64,000 nucleotides of DNA. Source: an uncultured Bdellovibrionales bacterium (GTDB taxonomy: Bacteria > Patescibacteriota > Minisyncoccia > Moranbacterales > UBA1568). The notes under the pieces were generated by a model. The model worked only from the letters and a program-made list of their open reading frames with translations. It had not been told where the DNA came from and did no database searches. This document shows, in pieces, positions 25,065 through 55,886 of the stretch. The stretch is taken from positions 9,424-73,423 of the forward strand of contig CAZIZG010000005.1 of assembly GCA_964543815.1 (NCBI GenBank). Reading direction: 5' to 3'. Within the stretch, counting starts at the first letter, position 1, and every line of letters starts with the position of its first letter. The translations under genes were made by a program, and so were the position numbers.

Positions 25065-26438
25065 ATGGGGCTGCGGGATAAAAAAAGGAAATCGATATCG
25101 TCAGTTTTGTTGGCGAGCTTGTCTTTTGTGATGTTGGCTGGAGCAGCTTTGTTTGTCACCGCTCATACGCAGTCTTGGGTGCCGGTTTCATTGGCTAAAG
25201 GGGATGACAACGGGGATGATGGTGATGACGACGGAGGCGATGATGGTGATAGCAAGGATGATAAAGAGAAGGAGAGCGAAAAAAAGAAATCAGAGGCTGA
25301 CAAGAAAGCCAAAGAGGAGGCAAAGAAGAAGGCTGAACGAGAGTCTGAAGCTGCCAAAAAGTCGGCTGAACAAATGCGGAAGTCTTCAGGAAGTGGAAAC
25401 GAGGCGGAAAACGAATCTGACGATATCAATGATGATCATGGTATCGAGGTTGAGGATGAGGACGAGAATGAGAGTGGCGATGATAACGGAATGTTTAAGG
25501 ATCGCACCAAGACTCTTTCTAAACTTGATGAAGAGTTAGCGAAAGCTGAAAAGGAAATTCTTGAGAAGCAGGCCGAGGGTGTTGATGTAACAGCCGCTCT
25601 TGCTCGATTGGCTGAGGCCAAGGCGAAAGCTGGTACAGTCGGCGCTGCTTTTGACGCCAATGACTTGGCAGCAGTGAAGGATCTTGGCCAAGAAGTGAAG
25701 AAACTTGCTCATTTTGCCAGTCACGACGATCTTCATGATGCCAAAAAGGTCGCGGAGAATGTAGCGCGTGTAGCGAAGCGCATCGCTCAAACAACCGGAA
25801 AAATATCGCTTCTTGAAGCGGTCGGAGGTGATGGTTCAGCATTTAAGGCTTCCTTGGCAACGCTCGAGACGGAATACGCCGGGCTCAAAGAAACCGTCAC
25901 AGCCGGGAGTTATGATGTGGTAGCTATGGAAGCTTCACTTCGTACCCTTGAGCGCAAGGTGAAGGCTGTTAAGAGTAGTGTTGAAGCCGCTATCTATGCC
26001 CTGGGTGGTACTGATAGTAAATACGATGATGATTATGAGGATGAGTCTCATGACGTGGCGGAGCATTTAAATGATGTGGCGGAGATCGAGGATGATCATG
26101 TCGGCTTGGTTATCCATGGCATTGCCGAGGATCACAAGAGTTCTGCCAAAAAGGTTGGAGAGGTGGTTACTAAGATTGACAATCGTAACCCGGTACTGCA
26201 GACACTTCTTGGTTCGAGCAGTAGTGATTTGAACGAGCTTGAGCAGGAGATTGCTGCTAATAAGTCACGGGTTGAGATGTTGACTCAGGCAGCGAACTCC
26301 GTGTCAGACCCGGATGTTCAGACAATGCTGTTTGACCAGATAGAGACCCTCAAAGAACAGACTGCCAAGCTCGAAACATTTGTAGAAGGTCAGCGTGACC
26401 GCCTCAGCGTCCTTGGTTGGTTCTTTAAGTTGTTCTAA
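25065..26438 (+). CDS. Hypothetical membrane-anchored, highly charged (D/E/K-rich) coiled-coil surface protein
   Basis: 457 aa with an N-terminal hydrophobic anchor, a poly-acidic DDNGDDGDDDGGDDGD tract, a KE-rich low-complexity region and alpha-helical heptad-like repeats. Confidence 0.5.
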   Translation: MGLRDKKRKSISSVLLASLSFVMLAGAALFVTAHTQSWVPVSLAKGDDNGDDGDDDGGDDGDSKDDKEKESEKKKSEADKKAKEEAKKKAERESEAAKKSAEQMRKSSGSGNEAENESDDINDDHGIEVEDEDENESGDDNGMFKDRTKTLSKLDEELAKAEKEILEKQAEGVDVTAALARLAEAKAKAGTVGAAFDANDLAAVKDLGQEVKKLAHFASHDDLHDAKKVAENVARVAKRIAQTTGKISLLEAVGGDGSAFKASLATLETEYAGLKETVTAGSYDVVAMEASLRTLERKVKAVKSSVEAAIYALGGTDSKYDDDYEDESHDVAEHLNDVAEIEDDHVGLVIHGIAEDHKSSAKKVGEVVTKIDNRNPVLQTLLGSSSSDLNELEQEIAANKSRVEMLTQAANSVSDPDVQTMLFDQIETLKEQTAKLETFVEGQRDRLSVLGWFFKLF

Positions 26439-26452
26439 AGGAAGTCTGCTAA

Positions 26453-26486
26453 AAAAGAAAAGAGAGCTCGAGCTCTCTTTTCTTTT
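26453..26486. terminator. 34-bp perfect palindrome (AAAAGAAAAGAGAGCTCGAGCTCTCTTTTCTTTT), probable bidirectional terminator
   Basis: Perfect 15-bp arms around a CTCGAG centre with T-run/A-run arms; lies 15 nt after the stop of the upstream gene. Confidence 0.55.
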
Positions 26487-26551
26487 CGTACAGTCGTTTT
26501 CATGGTAAAATTTGTTTACATTGAAGTGGTAACCCGCCATTTTTTGTTTCT

Positions 26552-26977
26552 ATGGATAGAAAATCAGAGCTGATATCTTGGATATTTTTTGTGGTATCAG
26601 CTTTCGTAATTGTGACTCTTTTTTCAAAATTTTATATATTAAGAGATTATACTTTGCGAAGTGAGGTTGCGTGTAATCCCCAATCGGAAGTTTGTTTTAT
26701 TCGGTCTTGCTCTGAAGACTGTGAGGAAGAAGCTAGCCCCGAATATTATAAGATTCGAATGATTCATGCTAGTGATGTGCCGTTATGTGATCCACATGTG
26801 GAGGAGTGCGCTCAAATCGATTGTAAGTCAGTGATTTCATGTGAAGAGCAATATTGCACTGAAGAATCTGTTCCGGAAGGCGAATCTTGTAGCGCAATTG
26901 AAAACTTTTTGATTGAGGAATCAGAGGGTGATACGGAGGAAGTGATGGAAATAAATGATAATCCCGAAGAAGAATAG
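26552..26977 (+). CDS. Hypothetical Cys-rich small membrane protein with an acidic C-terminal tail
   Basis: 141 aa with an N-terminal TM helix, 15 cysteines in the extracytoplasmic part and a C-terminal EESEGDTEEVMEINDNPEEE; the stop lies 4 nt before the next start. Confidence 0.5.
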   Translation: MDRKSELISWIFFVVSAFVIVTLFSKFYILRDYTLRSEVACNPQSEVCFIRSCSEDCEEEASPEYYKIRMIHASDVPLCDPHVEECAQIDCKSVISCEEQYCTEESVPEGESCSAIENFLIEESEGDTEEVMEINDNPEEE

Positions 26978-26981
26978 TGTT

Positions 26982-28277
26982 ATGAGGGTGTTGTTTATTT
27001 CTGAAGAATTAGGAGCTGCTGAACTGGCTCTAAAGCTTAAGAGTGAAGGAAATGATGTTAAGCTTTATATCCACCTTGATGAGTTGAGGGATTGTTTGAA
27101 TGGTCTAATCGAAAAGACTGATCACTGGAAAAATGAGCTAAATTGGGTTGGGAAGGATGGACTTATTGTTTTTGATGATGTTGGCTATGGTATTGAACAA
27201 GATCAATTACGAAAAGATGGTTATAGAGTGGTTGGTGGTAGTGCGGCTGGCGATAGAATAGAAGAAGACAGGGAATATGGCCAGACTATTCTTCGTCAGT
27301 GTGGTATTCAGACCCTTCCTTGTCATAATTTTGAAAATGCGGATGAAGCCATCGTTTTCGTCAAAGACCACATGAATGATTTGTGGGTTGTGAAGAAGAA
27401 TGGTGGTCATATTAGTCACTATTGCTATGTTCCTGATGATAAGAGTGCTAATCGTGACACGATTGGTTTACTTGAACGATACTCTGCACTTGGCTTCAAA
27501 AATATTAATCTTCAGAAGAAAGCTCAAGGGGTTGAAATTGGTATTGGTAGGTATTTCAATGGAAATGATTGGGTCGGGCCAATTGAAATAAATATCGAGC
27601 ACAAAGGGCTGTTTCCTGGTGATGTTGGTCCGAAAACGCCTGAGATGGGGACATTAATTTGGTATGAAAAAGATGAAAATAGCCGACTCTTTATTGAAAC
27701 CCTGGGTAAGATGAAGGAATATCTTCACTCGATTGATTTTAGGGGTGATATAGACTTGAGCTGCTTTGTCTCGGAGCAGGAAATTTGGCCGTTAGAATTT
27801 ACGGCGCGTTTTGGGAATCCCGCGACTGCTTTACAGATCGAGTTGCAAAATTCTCCGTGGACCGAATTTCTCTCAGCGTTGGCTGATGGAGTCTCGTATG
27901 ATCTGGATTGCAAGGAGGGTGTTGGTGTTGTCGTGACATTGGCTGTGCCGCCTTTTCCGTACTATTTTACCCAGCCTTCCTCTGAAAGTTCGGTCGGTTT
28001 TCCCGTTGTTTTCTCAGACACATTATCACGGGAAGATATGCAGCACTATTATTTCGAAGAGATAAACAGAATTGATAGTTTTGGTTATTCAGTGGCTGGT
28101 GCCAGGGGATGTGTTATGCATGTTGGTGCAGTAGGAGAAAACATCAAAAAAGCAAGGGATTTGGTGTATGAGCGCATTGGCAAGGTTCATATTCCTAAGA
28201 TGTTCTATCGAGATGATATTGGCTTGGATTTTGAAAAGCGAGGAAGAGAATTATTGAAAAAATGGAATTGGATTTGA
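26982..28277 (+). CDS. Divergent PurD-like (phosphoribosylamine-glycine ligase family) ATP-grasp ligase
   Basis: EFTARFGNPATA aligns with PurD EFNCRFGDPETQ and the C-terminal RDDIG matches PurD; the canonical N-terminal GGREHAL and KADGLAAGKGV motifs are not conserved. Confidence 0.55.
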   Translation: MRVLFISEELGAAELALKLKSEGNDVKLYIHLDELRDCLNGLIEKTDHWKNELNWVGKDGLIVFDDVGYGIEQDQLRKDGYRVVGGSAAGDRIEEDREYGQTILRQCGIQTLPCHNFENADEAIVFVKDHMNDLWVVKKNGGHISHYCYVPDDKSANRDTIGLLERYSALGFKNINLQKKAQGVEIGIGRYFNGNDWVGPIEINIEHKGLFPGDVGPKTPEMGTLIWYEKDENSRLFIETLGKMKEYLHSIDFRGDIDLSCFVSEQEIWPLEFTARFGNPATALQIELQNSPWTEFLSALADGVSYDLDCKEGVGVVVTLAVPPFPYYFTQPSSESSVGFPVVFSDTLSREDMQHYYFEEINRIDSFGYSVAGARGCVMHVGAVGENIKKARDLVYERIGKVHIPKMFYRDDIGLDFEKRGRELLKKWNWI

Positions 28278-28298
28278 ATATTTTTTGACTAAATATTT

Positions 28299-29237
28299 AT
28301 GTTAGAAAATTGGCTTCTCGTGGCATTCATTGCGCCGATGCTGTGGTCTTTAGTCAATTTGATTGATGTGTATTTTGTGAATGATGTCTATCGGGATGAA
28401 TATGATGGAGCAATTATTTCTGGCCTTTTTCCGATATTGCCTTGGACTCTGGTATTGTTTGGAGTCGTAGCCTTTAATTTTCCAGATACTGGATGGATGT
28501 GGTTTCTCACGGGAGGGGCACTTTTTCTGTTCGCAAACTTTTTTTACTTTAAAAGTCTTTTCCGAAATAATGACGCGGCATTGGTACAGATTTTTTGGAA
28601 CTTAACCGTCCCATTTACCTTGTTGTTTTCCTGGTTTTTTTTTCAAGAGAGTCTAAATCTTAAAGAGTATATTGGTATTGCTATTGTTTTAATCGGAGTA
28701 ATATACCTTTCGCTACAGGAGAAGGGGGATGAGTGGAAAATAAAGGATGTGTTAAAAAATATTATCCCAGCTTCTGTTTTGCTTGCTTCTAGTCTCGTTT
28801 GCACGAACTATGCCTATGAATCATCAGAGGTGCATTTTTTTGATGGGTATCTGGTGTTCGCCTCTGGTATGGTTCTAGGTGCTCTCGCACTTAATCTTTT
28901 TGATAAAACAAGTCTTAAAAATCGCTTTTCTCAAATTACCGTACTGACTAAGAAATATTTTCTGGTATTTTTTGCAGCTGAGCTTTTGGCTCTTGTAGGA
29001 ACAATCACCTCTCAAAGGGCTCTAGATCTTAGTCCTTCAGCGTCCTTTGTTGCCACTATTGAAAGCCTAAGCCCAGTTTTCGTTATGTTTTTCAGTCTCG
29101 TTATTGTGGTTTTGGGAAGAACATTGATTCGTGATTTTTCTGTGAGTGAATCTTTATACAACGCCCAATTTAGAGCTTTGAAAAAAAAATTTTTTGCAGT
29201 CACTACTATTGCTATTGGGATTTTTCTAGTGAGCTAG
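28299..29237 (+). CDS. DMT-superfamily (EamA-like) transporter
   Basis: 312 aa, about 10 TMs in two internal repeats, each ending in EamA-like IGIAIVLIGVIYLS / IAIGIFLVS motifs. Confidence 0.6.
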   Translation: MLENWLLVAFIAPMLWSLVNLIDVYFVNDVYRDEYDGAIISGLFPILPWTLVLFGVVAFNFPDTGWMWFLTGGALFLFANFFYFKSLFRNNDAALVQIFWNLTVPFTLLFSWFFFQESLNLKEYIGIAIVLIGVIYLSLQEKGDEWKIKDVLKNIIPASVLLASSLVCTNYAYESSEVHFFDGYLVFASGMVLGALALNLFDKTSLKNRFSQITVLTKKYFLVFFAAELLALVGTITSQRALDLSPSASFVATIESLSPVFVMFFSLVIVVLGRTLIRDFSVSESLYNAQFRALKKKFFAVTTIAIGIFLVS

Positions 29238-29296
29238 ACATTTCTCCTGTGCTACAATGTAAGCATTGTTAGGGGATTTCTATTAAAAAAGTACCT

Positions 29297-30952
29297 ATGT
29301 TTTGTACAGATATACCAAGTCCAATTGCGCTGATTTTTTCGAGTTCAACGCCCCAGTTGTTGTATTATTCTCACCTCCCCGCTGTTTTTTCAGCAGTTCT
29401 TGTTGGGTTGCTTATTTATTCAAAAAATAAGACTTTACAAGCAAAGTTGTTACTAACGTTGGTTCTATTGTTCTCGCTTTGGAATTTCATTGATCTTGTG
29501 AATTGGACAAATGTTGATAGTCGAAGGATTATGCTGACTTGGTCGATAATGAATTTTGTCGCTATTTTAATTGCAGTAACCACGCTTTATTTTTCGTACG
29601 CTTTTTTGGAAAAAAAGGATGTATCATGGAAAATAAAGTATATTGTGGCTACCCTGATTCTCCCGTACCTCATTCTTCTTCCGACATCAATGAATATTTC
29701 CGTGTTTGACCTGTCTCTTTGTGAGGCAGAGGAGGGTATACTAACTCTATATTTTTACTTCTTGCAAGGGGTATTTTTATTGTGGACGCCATCCTACTTG
29801 ATATATCGGTATATCAATACGCCAAGCCAAAAAAAAGCCGAGGTCTCATTTCTCGCTCTCGGAGTTCTATTTTTTCTTATGTTATTTTTTGGGGGAACCT
29901 TTGTAGCATCGTATAGCGGTGTTTGGGAGTATGAGCAGTATGGACTTTTCGGCATGATTTTATTCCTTGGACTGCTGACAGTGCTTGTTGTTCGTTATCA
30001 AGCCTTCAATGTTCGAATGATTGGAGCGCAGGCATTAGTGCTTGCGTTGGTGCTTTTGATTGGGTCACAGTACTTTTTTACGGTAGATGCCACTAATTTA
30101 ATTTTAATTTCAATTACTCTTCTACTCACCTTTGTTTTTGGTATCATTCTCATTCGCTCGGTCAAAGAGGAGGTGCGGAGAAAAGAAGAGTTACAGGTTT
30201 TGACCCAGGAGCTGGCGCAGGCCAATCAGGAACTTAAGCGGTTGGATGCGGCTAAGAGCGAATTTATCTCCATTGCTTCGCACCAGCTGCGGACGCCACT
30301 GACCGCTATTAAGGGCTATATTTCGCTTGTGCTTGAGGGCTCCTACGGCAAGGTAATTCCATCGGTGCAGGATGTTTTGAACAAAGTATATCTCGTCAAC
30401 AATCGTATGGGTCAACTGGTTGAGGACTTGCTGAGTATTTCTCGGATTGAATCCGGTCGGGTCCAGTATAATTTTGTTGAGGCGCAACTTGAGCCGATGG
30501 TGGCAGACATCGTGGATATGTTCGCGCTCATGGCTAAGGACAAAAAATTATCTCTCAAAATAAAGTTGCCCAAGAAGTCACTTCCAAAGTTGACGCTTGA
30601 TGTCAACAAAATGCGAGAGGTGGTTTCTAATCTTATCGATAACGCTCTCAAATATACCAAAGAGGGCGGTGTGACGGTCGAGGTAGATGAGGAGCCTGGT
30701 TTTGCGGTTGTTAGGGTGAGGGATACCGGTATTGGGGTTGACCCGAGAGATACTGATCGTCTCTTCGAAAAGTTTACTCGGAGTACAGAAACGATGAAGC
30801 TTGATGTCTCCGGAACAGGACTCGGTCTCTATGTTGGCAAAAATTTTGTTCAGGCTCATGGCGGGACACTTGCCGTCGAGTCTGAGGGAGCCGGCAAAGG
30901 GGCCTGCTTCATTATTCGGCTGCCACTGAAGTCTGCTGTTCAGAAAGGTTGA
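29297..30952 (+). CDS. Sensor histidine kinase with a large polytopic N-terminal membrane domain
   Basis: About 290 aa of TM helices, a coiled-coil linker, HisKA H-box IASHQLRTPLTAIKGY and HATPase_c N/G boxes (IDNALKYT, GTGLGLYV). Confidence 0.85.
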   Translation: MFCTDIPSPIALIFSSSTPQLLYYSHLPAVFSAVLVGLLIYSKNKTLQAKLLLTLVLLFSLWNFIDLVNWTNVDSRRIMLTWSIMNFVAILIAVTTLYFSYAFLEKKDVSWKIKYIVATLILPYLILLPTSMNISVFDLSLCEAEEGILTLYFYFLQGVFLLWTPSYLIYRYINTPSQKKAEVSFLALGVLFFLMLFFGGTFVASYSGVWEYEQYGLFGMILFLGLLTVLVVRYQAFNVRMIGAQALVLALVLLIGSQYFFTVDATNLILISITLLLTFVFGIILIRSVKEEVRRKEELQVLTQELAQANQELKRLDAAKSEFISIASHQLRTPLTAIKGYISLVLEGSYGKVIPSVQDVLNKVYLVNNRMGQLVEDLLSISRIESGRVQYNFVEAQLEPMVADIVDMFALMAKDKKLSLKIKLPKKSLPKLTLDVNKMREVVSNLIDNALKYTKEGGVTVEVDEEPGFAVVRVRDTGIGVDPRDTDRLFEKFTRSTETMKLDVSGTGLGLYVGKNFVQAHGGTLAVESEGAGKGACFIIRLPLKSAVQKG

Positions 30953-40264: not shown

Positions 40265-40338
40265 GGATGATTAGCTCAGTTGGTTAGAGCACAGCATTCA
40301 CATTGCTGGGGTCACTGGTTCGAATCCAGTATCATCCA
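40265..40338 (+). tRNA. tRNA-Val (anticodon CAC)
   Basis: Manual cloverleaf fold: acceptor GGATGAT/ATCATCC, D-arm GCTC/GAGC, anticodon stem CAGCA/TGCTG with loop TTCACAT, T-arm ACTGG/CCAGT with loop TTCGAAT, discriminator A; CCA not encoded. Confidence 0.8.
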
Positions 40339-42380: not shown

Positions 42381-42453
42381 TGGGTGCGGGGGGAATCGAA
42401 CCCTCGACCGTTGGCTTAAAAGGCCACTGCTCTACCGACTGAGCTACGCACCC
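42381..42453 (-). tRNA. tRNA-Lys (anticodon UUU)
   Basis: Manual fold of the reverse complement: acceptor GGGTGCG/CGCACCC, D-arm GCTC/GAGC, anticodon loop CTTTTAA, T-loop TTCGATT. The T-stem GAGGG/CCCCC has one A-C mismatch; CCA not encoded. Confidence 0.75.
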
Positions 42454-45607: not shown

Positions 45608-45635
45608 ATAAGGTCTATAAATAGTATCAACATTT

Positions 45636-46301
45636 ATGGGAAATCAGAATCTTTTCGTGTTGCTTCGCTCGAAATTTGGTACCCTGGTCATCTGGGGATT
45701 GCTTTTCGGCGCCTTGGCATTCTTCGGTCTTCTTATGACCGAAAAGCCATTTCAGACCAAGATGGATTTCTTGGTAGTGCAGGCTAATGCGACCAATCAG
45801 GATTTCTATACCCAGTTTAAATCCTCTGAGTATCTGGGCAAGATTTTGTCTGAGGCGGTGTACAGCGATCGCTTTATTGATGCCCTTGTTGAAACTGGCA
45901 AGGTAAATAAAGAATTCCTGCCTTTTGATAAACAGCAACGCCTCGCTACTTGGAGCAAGATGGTCCAGGTTGATAAGAACCTTGAACTCGGTATCATCAG
46001 TGTGACTGTCAAAGGTGATCGTGAACGCGATGTTGCTCGAATCATGGATGGTATCGCCGAGGTACTGACGACGCGCAATTCCCTCTTCCGTGGTGGTGAT
46101 GAAAAGAGCGTGGAGATCCGAATTCTTTCCGGCCCCATTCTTGAGCAGAATCCTGGGATGGCCAAGACACTGAAAGTGGTGCTCGTTGCCTTCCTCGCTG
46201 GACTGTTTGTTTCAGCCTTTGTCATCATCGTGAAAGCTGAATCCAAAACGAAGCCAGTCATTCGTCCGGATGGTCTTCATTTGAACGATACCATAGTCTA
46301 A
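45636..46301 (+). CDS. Wzz/polysaccharide co-polymerase-like protein (paralog 2 of 3)
   Basis: 221 aa with TM helices at both ends; the periplasmic region resembles the proteins at 22446 and 60811 (QANATNQDFYTQFKSSEYLGKIL). Confidence 0.45.
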   Translation: MGNQNLFVLLRSKFGTLVIWGLLFGALAFFGLLMTEKPFQTKMDFLVVQANATNQDFYTQFKSSEYLGKILSEAVYSDRFIDALVETGKVNKEFLPFDKQQRLATWSKMVQVDKNLELGIISVTVKGDRERDVARIMDGIAEVLTTRNSLFRGGDEKSVEIRILSGPILEQNPGMAKTLKVVLVAFLAGLFVSAFVIIVKAESKTKPVIRPDGLHLNDTIV

Positions 46302-46454
46302 GTAATTCCTTGATACTTGTGGCTTTCTGGTCATAAGTATCCTGGGAAGAGAGCGGTGTAGCGTTATCGTCATCACTGCTTTCTTCCTAGGATAGATTCG
46401 AAAGTGTAGTTTAACAATCAGTCTATCAGTTTTCAACTTCAACCTGGAGGTCGT

Positions 46455-47582
46455 ATGACCATGTTTCATAAGCTTTTGCTTCTGATCGTGTACGCGGCCT
46501 TCGCTGGTTGTGCCACGAATCCGCGTTTTGCCACTGAACTGCCCGCGAGTCATATCTCGGGTCAGAAGGTGTGTGAAGTGCCACAGCATTGGGAGGCGCT
46601 GGCGCTGAAAGGCGTCAATATGAAGTCGCTTACCAAGGCGAATGTGATTCAAGTGAGGATTCCGCCACAATGGGTGGGGGATGCGCTCGGGTGGTTTGTC
46701 GAGAGCGAGGAAGCTCGTACACTCGAACACTATCCGCGTATGACATGGCAAGCGCTGGTGGTAAATCAGCGTGGCGAGAAACAGATGTTTCCCGCCGTCA
46801 TGAAGAACCCGCTCGTTTCACCGATACTGACGATCATCATTGCAGACCCGGCATTTTCGATGGGGGATGAAGTGAACGTGTATGTGCCATCGGGCGCCTA
46901 CACCAAGCTTCTGACTACCACCGGTGATATGCTGCGTCTACCGATGAGTATGGACTGCCTTGGATTGGTTGATGCCGAATTCGTTCGGTCATTTCCGTCC
47001 AAGGCTCGAGTGCTGCCGGCAGGTGAAAGTCTGCTTGCGGGTATTCGGAAGGACTTCTCTGAGCCATCACTGCAAAGCGATGGCACGGTCTATTCCATCA
47101 GTCCGTTGGCGCTCACTCCGCAAGTGGTGGGTGACCTCCGTCAGGTGACACAGGGTGAGCGTATCGCTGAACGTGGTTTGCCGATTGCCTTTCCTCCAGG
47201 ATTGGGCACGGCAATTTCGCTCACTGTTGCTCTCGCGAGCACTGGTGACGATAAGTACGTCGGACCTTTCGGGGAACGGCTGTACTCACCACCTGAGGTG
47301 AATGCTGCGCTCGCTCGATATCTGCGCGTTTACAACTCGCTTAAGAATGACCTGGAATGGCGTCTGGGGATACCTCCTTCGGATGCTGTTGCTCCTCACC
47401 TGACCTTTGACGGACGCAAGTCCGGCTGGGAAATCGGTGAAGAGATGGTCTTTCGAGTGAGGGCCATGTGGGAAGTGCTCGATCAGTTGAAAGAGCGCTT
47501 TCTGTCTCGCACCAAGGAGAAAGGTGCACCTGCAATGAAAGAAGCAACTCAGACCGGGCTGCTTCCGAGCAGCTCACCTTAA
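46455..47582 (+). CDS. Hypothetical lipoprotein (island gene 1)
   Basis: Signal peptide with lipobox-like AAFAGC; GGAGG SD 6 nt upstream; GC-rich codon usage; no catalytic motifs recognised. Confidence 0.5.
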   Translation: MTMFHKLLLLIVYAAFAGCATNPRFATELPASHISGQKVCEVPQHWEALALKGVNMKSLTKANVIQVRIPPQWVGDALGWFVESEEARTLEHYPRMTWQALVVNQRGEKQMFPAVMKNPLVSPILTIIIADPAFSMGDEVNVYVPSGAYTKLLTTTGDMLRLPMSMDCLGLVDAEFVRSFPSKARVLPAGESLLAGIRKDFSEPSLQSDGTVYSISPLALTPQVVGDLRQVTQGERIAERGLPIAFPPGLGTAISLTVALASTGDDKYVGPFGERLYSPPEVNAALARYLRVYNSLKNDLEWRLGIPPSDAVAPHLTFDGRKSGWEIGEEMVFRVRAMWEVLDQLKERFLSRTKEKGAPAMKEATQTGLLPSSSP

Positions 47583-47602
47583 ACCCTTTGGAAGGAGTTC
47601 CC

Positions 47603-49120
47603 ATGAAATGGCTTCCCTCTCTCCTGCTGCTCCTCGGAGCGGCGGGTGCGTGGGCTGGTCAACCACCAGACCACAGGATCGAGCCAGGTGAAACGCTTGG
47701 CAAGATCGCGCAGAAGTACGGTTACGACTACAAGGTGCTTGGCGCCTTCAATGGTCTGACCAATCCGAACAAGATCCAGGCAGGAGCGATGATCCGGTTT
47801 CCGGCTCGTGGTGCCTCGCCTGCGATCAAGTCAGAACTTTCGTGCATTACGCTCGGTGCTGCTCCCTTCAACCCGGAGCACGTACTGAAGCGGACGCTCG
47901 AGGGTATCGACCTGCTTCAGACGCTGACCCCTCAACAACGGGAGTTGGCCAAGAACAAGGTTCTGCTCGGCGAGGTCGCAACGAGGAACGAATTGGTGGG
48001 GCAGCAAATCTTCACGGAAATGTTGTACCAATCCAAGTTCGGCAAGAAGCAAGTGGTGCACGTGTTCGGCAAGCCGATTTGCAGCCCGGAACAAGGGGGG
48101 CAGCCGGAGGTGATGAACACGTATGACCTGGGTGAGGGGGTATTTCTCTCCATCCCACGTCGGTGCGGCAACCCGTCAGTTTTCACCAAGCCGGTGAAGC
48201 CGACAACTCCGCCCCCGCCACCTCCTCCGCCACCAGCTACCACTCCCGATCCGACTCCTCCGGTGACATCACAACCCGATGAACCCGTAGAAGTTGAGCG
48301 GGTGGCACGTGACTACGATTGGGACGCGGGTCTCTTCGTAGGTGGCGACAAGGACGTGCGCTTTGCCGGTGGTGAAGGTGCTGGTTACCCGGTCATCAAG
48401 TATTACGACTGGGGACGCTACGCCCTCGGTGGTGGTGGTTCGTTTAGCCTCTGGAACGGCGGTACGCCTGATGGGTACCGCTACCGGGGTGAAACGGCTG
48501 CCTTTGGTCTGGCTCAGAAGTTTTCGTTCACAGGCGGTCGTGATCTGGGAGTCAAGTTCCCGATGTACGGTGACCTGTGGACGAGGGGTCATGACGCGAG
48601 TGGCAAGTACCAGCAGAAGACGCATGCCAGCATGCTCTGCGCTTCAGTGAGTTATACCGATGCTTCCCGTGAAAAGGAAGGCAAGACGGTGGCTCCCGAG
48701 TGGCAGCTGTGGGCATCGTTCTGCGACCCGTTCTCGCAGACCAAGTCGCACAGTTACGACGGCAAGCCTCTCGATGCGGCGACGATTCCCAACGTGAAGT
48801 ACGTGGCGGGCGTCGGCGGTCGGGTGATTCTGTCGAAGAATCTGGGCGACAGCGGTCTCGCGGCGAAGTTGCAACCGTTTGTGGAAGTGGGTGTCAATCA
48901 GACGGCGCCTAACCCACTCTCTGGACACGCCTACATCGGCCTGCGAACGGTCAACAAGGTGTGGGGTTGTGGAATCGGCGTGCACTACGCTGAGACCGGC
49001 AGTCTCCCCGGAGCTACCTGTACGTACGACCTCGGTCGTGACGTCAAGCTCCGGATCCAGAAGGAACGGTGGGATGCAATGATTCGGAGCCTCGAAGCTC
49101 TGGGTGTTGCTACCGACTGA
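47603..49120 (+). CDS. Secreted LysM-domain protein with poly-proline linker and a C-terminal Gly/Tyr/Trp-rich beta-rich domain (island gene 2)
   Basis: Signal peptide MKWLPSLLLLLGAAGAWA; LysM motif HRIEPGETLGKIAQKYGYDYKVLGAFNGLTNPNKIQAGAMIRFP; PTTPPPPPPPPPATTPDPTPP linker; GGAAGGAG SD. Start at 47603 rather than the ORF-track start. Confidence 0.65.
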   Translation: MKWLPSLLLLLGAAGAWAGQPPDHRIEPGETLGKIAQKYGYDYKVLGAFNGLTNPNKIQAGAMIRFPARGASPAIKSELSCITLGAAPFNPEHVLKRTLEGIDLLQTLTPQQRELAKNKVLLGEVATRNELVGQQIFTEMLYQSKFGKKQVVHVFGKPICSPEQGGQPEVMNTYDLGEGVFLSIPRRCGNPSVFTKPVKPTTPPPPPPPPPATTPDPTPPVTSQPDEPVEVERVARDYDWDAGLFVGGDKDVRFAGGEGAGYPVIKYYDWGRYALGGGGSFSLWNGGTPDGYRYRGETAAFGLAQKFSFTGGRDLGVKFPMYGDLWTRGHDASGKYQQKTHASMLCASVSYTDASREKEGKTVAPEWQLWASFCDPFSQTKSHSYDGKPLDAATIPNVKYVAGVGGRVILSKNLGDSGLAAKLQPFVEVGVNQTAPNPLSGHAYIGLRTVNKVWGCGIGVHYAETGSLPGATCTYDLGRDVKLRIQKERWDAMIRSLEALGVATD

Positions 49121-49262
49121 TAGACACTCCTCTCTCATGTAAAGTCCGAGACAGAATAAGTCTCAAGGCGAGCCTCTCAAGGGGCCGCCTCATAAAAAGT
49201 GTACGCTCTGACGTACTGGCTCATGGAGAGTAGGAAAACAGTCGCGACATCGTTCGCACAAT

Positions 49263-49306
49263 CAGGGCAGGAAGTTCATCCGAACGACCTGCCCTTGATC
49301 TTTTTA
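49263..49306 (+). terminator. Rho-independent terminator after the LysM gene
   Basis: AGGGCAGG / CCTGCCCT stem with 16-nt loop, followed by TTGATCTTTTTATA. Confidence 0.6.
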
Positions 49307-49332
49307 TACCTCCATAAAGCCATAATTTAGAT

Positions 49333-49361
49333 ATTGACAAAACAGGGAAAAGGGTGTATAC
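49333..49361 (+). promoter_or_regulatory. Near-consensus sigma70 promoter for island gene 3
   Basis: TTGACA, 17-nt spacer, TATACT; about 125-nt structured leader before the ATG at 49492. Confidence 0.65.
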
Positions 49362-49491
49362 TGAGTCGTTCAGTGGAAATCTCGTATGAGGTATCTCCTG
49401 AACGGTTTCGAATGTGCCTGAACATCCCAACCTCGGTTGGGTCGATGTGTCAGGCACATCTCATCACCCAACCACGTGCAAGGAGCACACC

Positions 49492-50103
49492 ATGTCGAAG
49501 AAGTTCGTTCTCATCGCTCTGACCGCCATCGCGGCCATCACCACCAATGCCTGGTCCGCTGGTGACCCCCTGAAGGGTGTCGCTGGCTACGATTCGGCAG
49601 GTGGCAGCAGCATCACGCTCACGGCCTCGGCGGTGAAGGACAAGTCCTACACCATCACCATCGCCGGCATGATCGGCGTCACGCCCGACGCGCTGAATGG
49701 CCTGACGCCCTACGCCAAGGTCATGGACGTCCCCCTGAAGAAGGAGGTCGGCCTGTACAAGCTGCCCGAAGGAACCAAGGTGTACGCCATGGGCCTGGGC
49801 CGTGACTGGGGCGACATGAGCGAGGAATTGGCCAAGATCGAGCTGGCCAAGGCCAAGGCCGAAGCCACGCTGGGCGCCGACGGCAAGCTCACCTTCACCT
49901 TCACCAAGGGCGAGGAACGCTGCCGGACGGTCAATTGGGTGGCGGTGCTGCCGGGCGGCGAGCAGCGCGCCTGGGGTGGTCATCCCGGCGCCTGGGTTGC
50001 CAAGAACGTGAACGATTCGCCGCGCACCGCCTGGTGCTTCCAAGGCGACAAGGTCGTCCAGATGGACCAGGCCACCAAGGTGGCGCTGGCCGGCAAGAAG
50101 TAG
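49492..50103 (+). CDS. Hypothetical secreted protein, very GC-rich (island gene 3)
   Basis: 203 aa with signal peptide ending AWSAG; AAGGAG SD 6 nt upstream; strongly GC3-biased codons; the long antisense ORF here is a GC artefact. Confidence 0.55.
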   Translation: MSKKFVLIALTAIAAITTNAWSAGDPLKGVAGYDSAGGSSITLTASAVKDKSYTITIAGMIGVTPDALNGLTPYAKVMDVPLKKEVGLYKLPEGTKVYAMGLGRDWGDMSEELAKIELAKAKAEATLGADGKLTFTFTKGEERCRTVNWVAVLPGGEQRAWGGHPGAWVAKNVNDSPRTAWCFQGDKVVQMDQATKVALAGKK

Positions 50104-50146
50104 CCAAGGCGGCCACAGCAGCTCCGCGTCAGTGACGCGGTTCCAA

Positions 50147-50190
50147 AGGAGTTTCAAAGTACACTGTACTGCGAAACTCCTCTTTTTTTA
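50147..50190 (+). terminator. Rho-independent terminator closing the GC-rich island
   Basis: AGGAGTTTC / GAAACTCCT stem with an internally palindromic loop, followed by a T8 run. Confidence 0.7.
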
Positions 50191-50235
50191 TTCAAAAATA
50201 TCCCCAGGCTACTCTTTTCATCTTGCTTCTTTCCT

Positions 50236-50275
50236 AATTCCTCACTTTCTTACGACCGTGAAAAAGTGAGGAATT
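50236..50275. repeat. Hairpin element A (AATTCCTCACTTT-N14-AAAGTGAGGAATT), 3' of the PaaX-like gene
   Basis: Perfect 13-bp inverted repeat with loop CTTACGACCGTGAA; about 90% identical to the reverse complement of element B. Confidence 0.6.
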
Positions 50276-50278
50276 TAT

Positions 50279-50827
50279 TTATTTGAGTTTGAATAACTTT
50301 TTTAACACCGCTTCGTTGTTTATATATTCGGCCGTAATAATGCGGACAAATGGTTCTGCTTGATAGAGTTTTACGAGAGATGTTATCTCCTTTTCACACG
50401 GGAAGGGAAAGATAAACACACTGTGTTGAAGTTCGTGAAATCCTACCGCTTTGAGATGAGAACGGAAGATATCACGGAATTTTCTGTGTTTTTCCGGGAT
50501 ATCGAAGAGTACTAATCGCCACAAGCTATCCCAATGCTTTGGATTCTTTATCTTTATACCTAAAAGTTGGCCAAGAGTCGCGCGTCGTCTGCCCTCGGTG
50601 GTGAGGTGTAGCGAAACTGATCCATCAGAGTGTTTTTTCTCAAAAATGAGTTGGTGCGAATAAAGTGAACGAACAGTCCTGGTTAGATTTGAGTGGTTGA
50701 TTTTCCGCCATTCTTTGCTGGCTAGGCTGAGTATTCGGAAGCTTTGTTTTGGAGAAGAAGAGCAGCTCAGAGCTATTCCGCTGAGAAGGAGTAAGAGGAC
50801 TTTTTCTTGTGCTGTTCCAGGTTTCAT
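50279..50827 (-). CDS. Short PaaX-family-like transcriptional regulator (wHTH N-terminus plus Cas2-like PaaX_C C-terminus)
   Basis: The C-terminal WRLVLFDIPEKHRKFRDIFRSHLKAVGFHELQHSVFIFPFP fits the PaaX_C/Cas2-like pattern. Start chosen at MKPGTAQ (50827) because the ORF-track N-terminal extension runs through hairpin element B. Confidence 0.55.
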   Translation of the reverse strand: MKPGTAQEKVLLLLLSGIALSCSSSPKQSFRILSLASKEWRKINHSNLTRTVRSLYSHQLIFEKKHSDGSVSLHLTTEGRRRATLGQLLGIKIKNPKHWDSLWRLVLFDIPEKHRKFRDIFRSHLKAVGFHELQHSVFIFPFPCEKEITSLVKLYQAEPFVRIITAEYINNEAVLKKLFKLK

Positions 50828-50837
50828 AATTCTTGCT

Positions 50838-50873
50838 TTCCTCATTTTTTCACGGTCGTGAGAAAATGAGGAA
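50838..50873. repeat. Hairpin element B (TTCCTCATTTT-N14-AAAATGAGGAA), 5' of the PaaX-like gene
   Basis: 11-bp inverted repeat with loop TTCACGGTCGTGAG, the reverse complement of the element A loop (one mismatch). Confidence 0.6.
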
Positions 50874-50903
50874 TTAAAGAAGGAGAAAAGTAGCAACGAA
50901 GAA

Positions 50904-52283
50904 TTATTTTTTTTCTGAATTTTTTTGGTCGGAGAGGGCAAGGAGAGCACCAAAGGCGGTGAAGAACAACCATTGGACTGGCGTGTTTTTGAAAATGTTG
51001 TCCGTTAACGCCGAGAGTTCGAGGGTGACGAAGAAAACAAAGAGGATACCAAAGGCAATCTGGAGGGCGCTGCCCCGACGACTGCTTCGGTAACGGCGAA
51101 TGAGTAGTGTAGCGATAGATCCAAGGTAGGTGATGAGTGCCACGACACCAATGACGCCACCTTCGACATAAAATTTTACCAGATCATTATGGGGATCATT
51201 GGGACCGTGATTGGTACCACGGACACTCTCGGAAATTCTGGGAAAGGTATCCATGCCGGCACCGAGGAGTACTCGATTGTCCTGACGGGTAGCGACGGTA
51301 ACATCGTTCCAGAGAGTCTGACGCCAGACAATCGAGCTATCGGGATCAGGATGAAAGCTTTCAGAAACACGTGATTGGAAACTCGGCGAAAAGACAAAGA
51401 GGACGAAAGGAAACAGAAAAAGAGGAAAGAGGAGTAGTCGGTATCGGAAGAGTGCTACGAGAAAAACAAAGAGAAAGAGGGCGACCCAGGCGACCCGGGC
51501 GAAAGTAAGGAGGAGCATGGTGGCAAAAATACCGAGGATAGCGAGCATGAGGATGCGCTTCAGGCCGCTTTCGGCGAAGAGAACGAGGTACATCACCCCA
51601 AAGACAATCATGGCAAAGAGGTAGAGTGAATAGACGTTCGGGTGACTAAAGGTACCAAAGATGCGGAGAATCGAGACATTTTCATCCGAGAGGCCAATAT
51701 GAAACACAAACTGGTAGAGGCCAAAGAGAATCGGGAGGATGCTCGAGATAAAAAAGGCTTGGAGGAGGTATTGAAAATCACGGGTAGTCCGGATAGTAGC
51801 ATAGGCGAGAAAGCCGAGAGCAAACAAATCAAAGACGCGGAGGAGCTCCTGGAGCGTCACTCGAGGATAGAGGGAGTAGAGGAGGGTGAGTCCACCCCAG
51901 AGAAAAATGACTAAAAAAGGGAAGTTGAGAGGAAAGCGTGGGAGAGTGGCACGCTTCAAGATGAGTACGAGTATTCCAAGGAAGGCAATGCCGACGCCGA
52001 CTAGCTGTGAAAGGGTGAGAGTGATGTCGTAGAGAGTGATACTCACGTACTGTGATGAGTAGTCGAGGGACATACGTACGATGACGAGGAGAAAAAGGAG
52101 GAGGAGTGGGGATTGAAACAAGAGAACAAGCGAAAGTATCCCCACGACAAAAAGTGGCGCGATGAAAAGCGAAAGGTGGAGCACCAGTGAGAGCGCGAGA
52201 CCTACCAGGAGCACAGTTCCGAGTGCTCCAATGAGGAACGGGTGACGAAGGACGGCAAAGGGGTTGTCAGTAGGATTTGTCAT
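50904..52283 (-). CDS. O-antigen ligase/polymerase-family (Wzy_C-like) polytopic membrane protein
   Basis: 459 aa, about 12 TMs with a large extracytoplasmic loop carrying conserved His/Arg (GTNHGPNDPHNDLVKFYVEGG), in a polysaccharide gene neighbourhood. Confidence 0.5.
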   Translation of the reverse strand: MTNPTDNPFAVLRHPFLIGALGTVLLVGLALSLVLHLSLFIAPLFVVGILSLVLLFQSPLLLLFLLVIVRMSLDYSSQYVSITLYDITLTLSQLVGVGIAFLGILVLILKRATLPRFPLNFPFLVIFLWGGLTLLYSLYPRVTLQELLRVFDLFALGFLAYATIRTTRDFQYLLQAFFISSILPILFGLYQFVFHIGLSDENVSILRIFGTFSHPNVYSLYLFAMIVFGVMYLVLFAESGLKRILMLAILGIFATMLLLTFARVAWVALFLFVFLVALFRYRLLLFPLFLFPFVLFVFSPSFQSRVSESFHPDPDSSIVWRQTLWNDVTVATRQDNRVLLGAGMDTFPRISESVRGTNHGPNDPHNDLVKFYVEGGVIGVVALITYLGSIATLLIRRYRSSRRGSALQIAFGILFVFFVTLELSALTDNIFKNTPVQWLFFTAFGALLALSDQKNSEKK

Positions 52284-55397: not shown

Positions 55398-55886
55398 ATG
55401 TTGCGAATTTTTTTTCGTGCTTGCATCGCGTTCATGAGTGCGTTCGCTATCCTGCTGGCGGGAAGCGTGATCCTAAGCTACGCTCATGCCGCCGAGTCCA
55501 AGGGCTTTTCGGCTACCTATGTGGCCAAGGACGCTCATTTGGCGCAGGTCTATCTCTTTGTGGAGTATTACTCCGCTGGGAGGACAGCGACGAGTCCGGC
55601 GGCTAAGAAACTGGCCAGGGAATTGAATCGGGCGCTCAGTACTTCATTTCAACCAATCATGGGAGGCGGCAGGGGTGCTGTGCGGGCACACTGCAACATC
55701 GTTCTCCGTGATTGGAAAGACGGGGAAGGTGATCCGAACTTCCAGGTTCGTTGTGAGACATCGGCAGGTGGAACTGAAGTGGCGCCATTCGTTTCGATGG
55801 ACCTGCCGGAAACGGTCGCAGACGTGATGAAGCTCGTCAACGCTTTGATGATTGAGCACAGGCGTCGTATCGCACATCCCGGCTAA
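55398..55886 (+). CDS. Hypothetical secreted protein in a moderately GC-rich insert
   Basis: Signal peptide MLRIFFRACIAFMSAFAILLAGSVILSYAHA; GGAGA SD-like sequence 6 nt upstream; GC above neighbours; the TTG-started ORF-track extension is rejected. Confidence 0.45.
   Translation: MLRIFFRACIAFMSAFAILLAGSVILSYAHAAESKGFSATYVAKDAHLAQVYLFVEYYSAGRTATSPAAKKLARELNRALSTSFQPIMGGGRGAVRAHCNIVLRDWKDGEGDPNFQVRCETSAGGTEVAPFVSMDLPETVADVMKLVNALMIEHRRRIAHPG

Follow-up and report, generated by a model that had tools for sequence, protein, structure and literature searches.

Among described proteins with an outer-membrane β-barrel, the inverse autotransporters (type Ve; intimin and invasin) have the architecture nearest to that predicted for gene 2, the middle gene of a three-gene block at positions 46301-50200 of a 64,000-nucleotide stretch of bacterial DNA (assembly GCA_964543815.1, contig CAZIZG010000005.1, positions 9,424 to 73,423 of the forward strand; the whole stretch is hereafter called the window): in both, a LysM domain is followed by a 12-stranded barrel. 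In composition the block resembles horizontally acquired genomic islands, and the expression signals of gene 3 recall those of ompA and lpp of Escherichia coli, which are very highly expressed envelope genes of a diderm. The block is probably a native and anciently resident envelope operon of a clade of Moranbacteria, part of the Candidate Phyla Radiation (CPR), with its distinctive signals kept by selection. The three plus-strand genes that a preliminary description of the window had placed here, for a lipoprotein, a LysM protein and a secreted protein, are borne out at the same positions, and their products are divided as follows.

46455-47582, plus strand: gene 1, predicted lipoprotein of 375 residues; lipobox FAGC with Cys19; lineage-restricted family
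47603-49120, plus strand: gene 2, 505 residues; signal peptide, LysM domain, α/β domain, proline-rich linker, predicted barrel and C-terminal helix
Gene 2 residues 23-67, plus strand: LysM domain; PF01476 match at residues 24-67 (E 1e-9), with matches to LysM structures in the PDB
Gene 2 residues 85-195, plus strand: α/β middle domain in the predicted structure
Gene 2 residues 199-236, plus strand: proline-rich linker of about 40 residues, disordered in the model
Gene 2 residues 237-476 (nucleotides 48311-49030), plus strand: predicted 12-stranded β-barrel with long antiparallel strands
Gene 2 residues 477-499, plus strand: C-terminal helix in the predicted structure
49492-50103, plus strand: gene 3, secreted protein of 203 residues with two conserved cysteines; G+C content at third codon positions (GC3) 0.88

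While gene 2 has the signal peptide and the N-terminal LysM domain (PF01476) of the type Ve proteins, the Ig-like or lectin passenger is absent, and the protein ends 29 residues past the barrel with a single 23-residue helix. An additional α/β domain and the proline-rich linker are present between the LysM domain and the barrel, no sequence match is seen to IAT_beta or to any other Pfam barrel model, and the phylum is thought to have neither an outer membrane nor BAM. Given the missing passenger, the lack of a sequence-family match and the different cellular context, gene 2 does not appear to be a member of the inverse autotransporters. The classical autotransporters (type Va; BrkA, Hbp, EspP and NalP) are characterized by a PF03797 barrel, an α-helical linker and an N-terminal passenger. 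Gene 2 lacks PF03797, the β-helical passenger and the α-helical pre-barrel linker, and towards its N-terminus it has a LysM module that binds the wall, in place of an exported passenger, which puts it outside that class as well. With acquired islands the block shares the deviation in G+C content, GC3, codon usage and tetranucleotide composition as well as the sharp boundaries; in contrast to them, it is fixed in position across the clade and devoid of mobility genes, repeats and foreign homologues, and its deviation persists despite saturated synonymous divergence. Finally, gene 3 is similar to ompA and lpp in its near-consensus promoter, 5′-untranslated hairpins of a stabilizing type, strong Shine-Dalgarno (SD) sequence, extreme codon bias and strong terminator, but its protein belongs to an orphan family without an established fold or function.

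A conserved position in a Moranbacteria surface-glycan locus

The position of the block is shared by nine of the ten lineages examined, which are the window itself (W) and nine relatives (L017/18, L019, L021, L023, L024, L026, L027, L030 and L033), L030 being the one that differs. In the other nine, the block or an orthologous cassette lies in the order SerRS, BNR lipoprotein, RRF, RseP, Wzz-like protein, cassette, Wzy_C protein, methyltransferase and GT1. The two genes bordering this slot in the window are the following.

45636-46301, plus strand: Wzz/CpsC-like chain-length-determinant gene, left neighbour (TIGR01006, E 1e-10); syntenic in all relatives
50904-52283, minus strand: Wzy_C (O-antigen-ligase-like) membrane protein gene (PF04932), right neighbour in most lineages

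The Wzy_C gene is not called in the L020/L021 loci. In L030 the neighbourhood is a different one, with ClpB and HtrA, and still the cassette adjoins Wzz-like, Wzy_C, glycosyltransferase and DUF1565 genes. Homologues of gene 2 in the shared slot are 68%, 60%, 42% and 33% identical to it, and two more are similar in the barrel alone. The cassette lies in a variable surface-glycan locus in which accessory genes are gained and lost, and in some lineages it includes one to three extra SD-led genes for secreted proteins.

The divergence of the cassette follows that of the genomes carrying it. The island proteins are 62-71% identical where housekeeping proteins are 76-89% identical, and 42-44% identical where the backbone values are 52-82%, a scaling that indicates vertical inheritance. 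Between the window and its relatives the proportion of synonymous differences (pS) is saturated in the backbone at 0.67-0.93 and is lower in the island, where genes 1 and 2 have 0.57-0.62 and gene 3 has 0.42-0.51, whereas the nonsynonymous divergence (dN) of the island, 0.20-0.34, exceeds the 0.07-0.16 of the backbone. The combination of low pS and high dN is the signature of constrained codon choice rather than of recent exchange. Since divergence scales in this way and synonymous sites are saturated, any transfer of the block predates the divergence of the clade.

Gene content and the names of relatives assign the backbone to the Moranbacteria (CPR). In three independent metagenome-assembled genomes (MAGs) at NCBI, GreA proteins with at least 90% identity bear the name Ca. 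Moranbacteria/Moraniibacteriota; the family members P0021, P0025 and P0068, together with a 652-kb contig that carries an orthologous cassette (CAVURJ01), are labelled Moranbacteria/Moraniibacteriota; and the window has a CPR-like content of SecDF, aminoacyl-tRNA synthetase genes, MreBCD, penicillin-binding proteins, a MacB-type ABC transporter, glycosyltransferases and an ADP-forming acetyl-CoA synthetase. Family matches to the three block proteins number 32, 8 and 40 and include no foreign names, the credible ones being exclusively Ca. Moranbacteria/Moraniibacteriota. A diderm predator as the source of the backbone, to which Bdellovibrionales titles would point, was rejected on the GreA names, the family-member labels, the CPR-like genes, the lack of outer-membrane genes in the window and the 652-kb Moranbacteria contig. 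Three cassette-bearing MAGs with a CPR-type backbone do bear the title 'uncultured Bdellovibrionales' (L022, L023 and L024; CAZATJ01, CAZTBI01 and CAYMZY01), and such titles are probably errors of the taxonomy label. A scan of genome contigs with the alignment of gene 1 gave matches in just four species genomes, three with this title and the one with the 652-kb contig. A separate 4.1-kb contig, L031 (JBEGTR01), holds the cassette alone and was binned in a 'Verrucomicrobiota' MAG; this is probably a mis-binning, perhaps caused by the atypical composition of the cassette.

The composition of the block departs clearly from the rest of the window, as the preliminary description had noted. The G+C content is 47.5% for the window and 57-60% for the 1-kb bins between 47 and 50 kb, with 200-bp bins reaching 69%. 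GC3 is 0.577, 0.672 and 0.882 for genes 1, 2 and 3, respectively, against a mean of 0.473 (standard deviation 0.051, maximum 0.608) for the 48 other window genes, taken as long open reading frames (ORFs), which corresponds to z-scores of 2.1, 3.9 and 8.1. The enrichment is therefore a stepwise rise from gene 1 to gene 3 and not the uniform property of a block. The tetranucleotide comparison that had been proposed places 46301-50200 as the strongest outlier of the window, with a z-score of 7.9 raw and 5.5 after correction for base composition, and neither of the flanking Wzz and Wzy genes is enriched in GC3. In gene 3 the codon bias is extreme, with AAG used in 20 of 20 cases and ATC, TAC and TTC each in 100%, and the gene avoids A/T-ending codons generally rather than favouring one selective codon set. 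On the minus strand over gene 3, a 235-residue antisense ORF (49450-50157) is called as the gene in one public assembly (L001), an artefact to be explained by the unusually high GC3 there.

Expression signals and their conservation

The block carries several recognizable expression signals, listed here in order along the plus strand.

46338-46394, plus strand: conserved hairpin of about 20 bp between the Wzz-like gene and gene 1; 20 pairs by RNAalifold in a seven-lineage alignment
46446-46450, plus strand: SD sequence GGAGG, preceding the ATG of gene 1 by 4 nt; duplex energy -10.0 kcal/mol
47590-47597, plus strand: SD sequence GGAAGGAG of gene 2; duplex energy -8.3 kcal/mol
49334-49362, plus strand: near-consensus sigma-70 promoter of gene 3 (TTGACA, 17 nt, TATACT); 11 of 12 matches
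49370-49491, plus strand: 5′ leader of gene 3, folded into one 5′ hairpin and one long hairpin; minimum free energy -48.9 kcal/mol, z-score -3.8
49480-49485, plus strand: SD sequence AAGGAG of gene 3, part of its leader
50147-50190, plus strand: intrinsic terminator at the end of the transcript of gene 3; two inverted arms of 17 nt (50147-50163, 50165-50181), then a T-run

The contrast in SD sequences that had been described between the block and the native genes, and likewise the terminator with its stem at 50147-50181 and T-run, were found again. When the energy of the duplex with the anti-SD sequence is computed over the 20 nt preceding the start codon, gene 3 has -7.7 kcal/mol, so that all three block genes lie beyond the -6 kcal/mol at which an SD sequence was counted. 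The 48 other genes have a mean of -2.0 kcal/mol, weaker than random 20-mers of the window, and the two of them that reach -6 kcal/mol or lower both have the motif misplaced by about 20 nt upstream; the Wzz-like left neighbour shows native composition and no SD sequence. Across the compared lineages, 31 of the 36 genes in cassettes (about 86%) have an SD sequence, compared with 4 of 85 neighbours (about 5%), giving a Fisher p value of 2e-19 over lineages that are not independent. Outside the block, a fourth SD-led gene for a secreted protein of 162 residues occurs at 55398-55886. Its ATG follows GGAG at 8 nt, and its GC3 of 0.61 exceeds that of every other non-island gene; its orthologues in L023, L026 and L017 carry stronger SD sequences (GAGGAGG, AAGGAGGGGG).

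The noncoding elements are conserved along with the SD sequences. The hairpin upstream of gene 1 shows compensatory changes at 8 of its 20 pairs among the seven lineages and is followed by a conserved TTAACAAT motif, and an SD-like motif precedes gene 1 in all seven. The hairpin is probably the 5′ stem-loop of a transcript of genes 1 and 2, or else a processing or termination site. In gene 3, the promoter core TTGACA...GGGTGTA is invariant in five lineages, and the leader of about 125 nt is near-identical in the window, L018 and L021 despite a protein identity of about 60%, while it differs in two more distant lineages. No Rfam family was found in the island leaders at the gathering threshold, and the gene 3 leader could be an mRNA stabilizer or an undescribed regulatory RNA. 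For the native genes, a hint of a different mode of initiation comes from AGGTCTATAAATAGTATC (45608-45635), which lies directly before the ATG of the Wzz-like gene and is conserved in the window, in L017 and, with few changes, in L021; its core TAAATAGTAT is likewise found before the orthologues in L023 and L026. The sequence looks like a -10 box that would leave a very short leader, hinting at short-leader or leaderless, SD-independent initiation of native genes.

GC3 in the cassette is likewise maintained. The median GC3 of the backbone ranges from 0.43 to 0.69 over nine lineages, whereas the values remain within about 0.53-0.69 for genes 1 and 2 and within 0.71-0.89 for the orthologue of gene 3; the cassette is thus steady while the backbone varies, and the contrast is therefore visible only against a low-GC backbone. 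The gradient from gene 1 through gene 2 to gene 3 recurs across lineages, and in L033 an accessory cassette gene has a GC3 of 0.29 beside 0.62 for the barrel gene and 0.75 for the last gene. Because the raised GC3, SD sequences, promoter and leaders persist beyond synonymous saturation, they appear to be maintained rather than left over.

Gene products and the predicted barrel

All three products start with a signal peptide. In gene 1 the N-terminus ends in ...AAFAGC, with G18 and C19 invariant across 38 homologues, and the signal peptide and lipobox with its invariant cysteine that identify bacterial lipoproteins are thus both recognizable in the sequence. A structural or fold match was sought for this conserved lipoprotein and none was found, and for gene 3 no relatives were detected beyond its own family. 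Pfam and NCBIfam, searched both with default and with relaxed thresholds, returned only LysM, both for the three proteins and for the accessory cassette proteins of the relatives, and profile searches of the PDB gave no match for genes 1 and 3 and the LysM domain alone for gene 2.

The structure model of gene 2 has a mean pLDDT (predicted local distance difference test) of 84, with values above 93 in the barrel, and Foldseek groups the modelled C-terminal domain with 12-stranded barrels of autotransporters and invasins. The strands alternate hydrophobic and polar residues and contain 15.8% glycine and 13.3% aromatics, as is typical for such barrels. Gene 2 is accordingly predicted to carry a 12-stranded β-barrel of the outer-membrane type, and is best described as an unannotated family of LysM-tethered outer-membrane-type barrels specific to the CPR clade. 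In a profile search of 1.84 billion representative sequences, some 90 proteins containing the barrel scored below E 1e-30, and in many of them the N-terminal region is swapped. The family representatives with retrievable genomic context sit in the same kind of cassette, and those with context or credible names belong to CPR-type cassettes.

Together, the lipoprotein and the modelled barrel would make up a diderm-type module in a phylum, the Patescibacteria, that has been proposed to lack an outer membrane (PMC12102498). No outer-membrane biogenesis genes were found within the 64-kb window. The hosts of Moranbacteria are still unknown (PMC10811913), and with these two points in view the residence of the barrel is the most interesting aspect of the block.

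Origin of the block and alternative explanations

The reading that is favoured here, of a native and ancient envelope operon, would imply the following arrangement. The operon, inside a Wzy-type surface-glycan locus, would consist of two transcription units, of which the first is led by the hairpin and encodes the lipoprotein and the LysM/β-barrel protein, and the second is gene 3, served by a near-consensus promoter of its own, by its structured leader and SD sequence, and by a strong terminator. All three products would be exported by the Sec pathway, the LysM domain of gene 2 would hold the protein on peptidoglycan, and the proline-rich linker of about 40 residues could present the 12-stranded barrel beyond the wall. 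GC3, codon choice and SD sequences would most likely be selected on these genes so that abundant envelope proteins are translated strongly, in an SD-dependent manner, and from stable mRNA, with the remaining genes of this genome starting translation without an SD sequence. The analysis demonstrates the residence and synteny of the block, the conservation of its signals and a predicted fold, whereas high expression, the cause of the codon bias and the site of barrel insertion are inferences.

Several observations weigh against this reading. The high and stable expression of the block genes is inferred solely from promoter, SD sequences, codon bias and terminator. The moderately expressed housekeeping genes of the window (RRF, GreA, MreB, SecDF, aminoacyl-tRNA synthetases) have neither an SD sequence nor raised GC3, and with these genes as benchmark the codon bias of the block is therefore not the general translational-selection pattern of this genome. 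The codons of gene 3 (CTG, GCC, GGC, ACC, AAG) look exactly like those of a high-GC proteobacterial gene, which a foreign origin would fit equally well, and a transmembrane barrel would have no obvious home in a monoderm cell. Moreover, since the lineages are related, the pooled Fisher test overstates their independence.

The preliminary description had interpreted the block as an import from a high-GC, SD-using donor, the host being an obvious candidate, with an assembly chimera as the alternative. A recent transfer into this strain from its current host or from another high-GC bacterium would account for the strong contrast in GC, GC3, tetranucleotides and SD sequences with the flanks in this genome, and the deviating composition expected of a recent island is indeed present (GC3 z-scores of 2.1, 3.9 and 8.1; tetranucleotide z-score of 7.9). 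The distribution is not patchy, however, as the same slot is occupied in nine lineages down to 33% identity, and orthologous cassettes in at least eight other lineages show proportional protein divergence and saturated or nearly saturated synonymous divergence (dS). The closest homologues of all three proteins come from the same CPR lineage and occupy the same slot, with likewise raised GC3 and SD sequences, an outcome that the preliminary description itself had named as contradicting an import; no non-CPR homologue, and none from Actinobacteria or Proteobacteria in particular, was found, including in the profile search of 1.84 billion representatives, and the sole 'Verrucomicrobiota' label belongs to the 4-kb contig with the same cassette. 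Neither an integrase nor any other mobility domain is found among the neighbours, flanking direct repeats are absent, and no tRNA is adjacent, the nearest being 4-6 kb away on both sides of SerRS (40265-40338, plus strand; 42381-42453, minus strand) and unconnected with the boundaries of the block. Conserved synteny across the compared sequences thus already refutes a recent transfer, which is left with a very slim likelihood. The chance that a high-GC fragment was joined to a CPR contig in assembly or binning is practically nil. The abrupt change in composition would be in its favour, and so would several short contigs that end at 50161-50275, beside the terminator and the hairpin repeat, but six assemblies run across the left junction (L001-L005 and L009) and six across the right one (L001-L004, L009 and L012); these come from three assemblers (SPAdes, MEGAHIT and Logan) and several runs and are 99.98-100% identical with 0-3 single-nucleotide polymorphisms. 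Many public contigs carry the exact block proteins together with their flanks. The same arrangement is also present in divergent relatives, including contigs of 253, 485 and 652 kb.

What survives of the foreign-origin idea is an ancient acquisition, plausible though unproven, in which a diderm, SD-using and probably GC-rich donor gave a module of lipoprotein, outer-membrane protein and periplasmic protein to the ancestor of the clade, and donor-type expression signals were kept because the genes depend on them. The idea is plausible because the predicted barrel next to a lipoprotein makes a module of the diderm type, although the phylum has been proposed to lack an outer membrane; it fits the fold and the codon usage, and it is compatible with the favoured explanation of the present state. 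Nevertheless, it is regarded as a doubtful if serious possibility: no donor homologue was found; there is no match in Pfam, NCBIfam or the PDB by sequence beyond LysM; the barrel representatives with context or credible names, among about 90, are those of CPR-type cassettes; the block has no mobility signatures; and with synonymous sites saturated, its composition cannot by itself be a relic. GC-biased gene conversion, which would raise GC3 with no selection for expression if a surface-antigen locus were a hot spot of recombination, would suit a cassette in a variable surface-glycan locus with turnover of accessory genes, its fast-evolving proteins (dN 0.20-0.34), and the shunning of A/T-ending codons across the board with no selective codon set. 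Yet it leaves the SD sequences, the invariant promoter and the conserved leaders unexplained, adjacent cassette genes differ sharply in GC3 (0.29 against 0.62 and 0.75 in L033), and the Wzz and Wzy flanks of the same locus are not enriched; gene conversion is thus considered decidedly improbable.

A native envelope operon of this kind would mean that what looks like a sharply bounded island in composition can be an operon of great age and vertical descent, with its GC3, codon choice and SD sequences kept well beyond synonymous saturation, and that two classes of translation start signal exist within one small genome. It also carries a warning for the detection of horizontal transfer and for CPR binning, as a cassette fragment was apparently binned into a Verrucomicrobiota MAG. 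The unannotated family, for which an outer-membrane-type barrel is predicted with confidence although its phylum is believed to have no outer membrane, provides a defined protein with which the contact between episymbiotic CPR bacteria and their hosts and the nature of the CPR envelope become directly testable. A more far-reaching proposal, considered unlikely, is that the peptidoglycan-anchored, tethered barrel inserts in the outer membrane of a Gram-negative host for attachment or as a pore, or that Moranbacteria have an outer-membrane-like layer of their own, with the cassette translated by a reserved SD-dependent regime. If this were true, the cell would reserve SD-dependent translation for exported machinery, under either location of the barrel.

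Two further features of the window deserve mention. The stretch at 26000-30000 is low in GC (37.5-42%, with gene GC3 of 0.35-0.37), ranks second among the tetranucleotide outliers and contains a GARS_A-type ATP-grasp gene, an EamA transporter gene and the start of a histidine kinase gene; it may be a separate compositional anomaly. Beyond the terminator of gene 3, the PaaX-like gene with inverted hairpin repeats noted in the preliminary description was recovered as a PaaX_M/Cas2-like gene (50279-50845, minus strand) tightly bracketed by 51-nt inverted repeats at 50223-50273 and 50838-50888, each with its own hairpin. The gene is not called in the other loci of relatives examined, except in L027, where it lies near the cassette on the opposite strand, and several short public contigs stop exactly at 50268-50275, which suggests that the gene and its repeats are either a small cassette, mobile or repeated, or else a presence/absence polymorphism.

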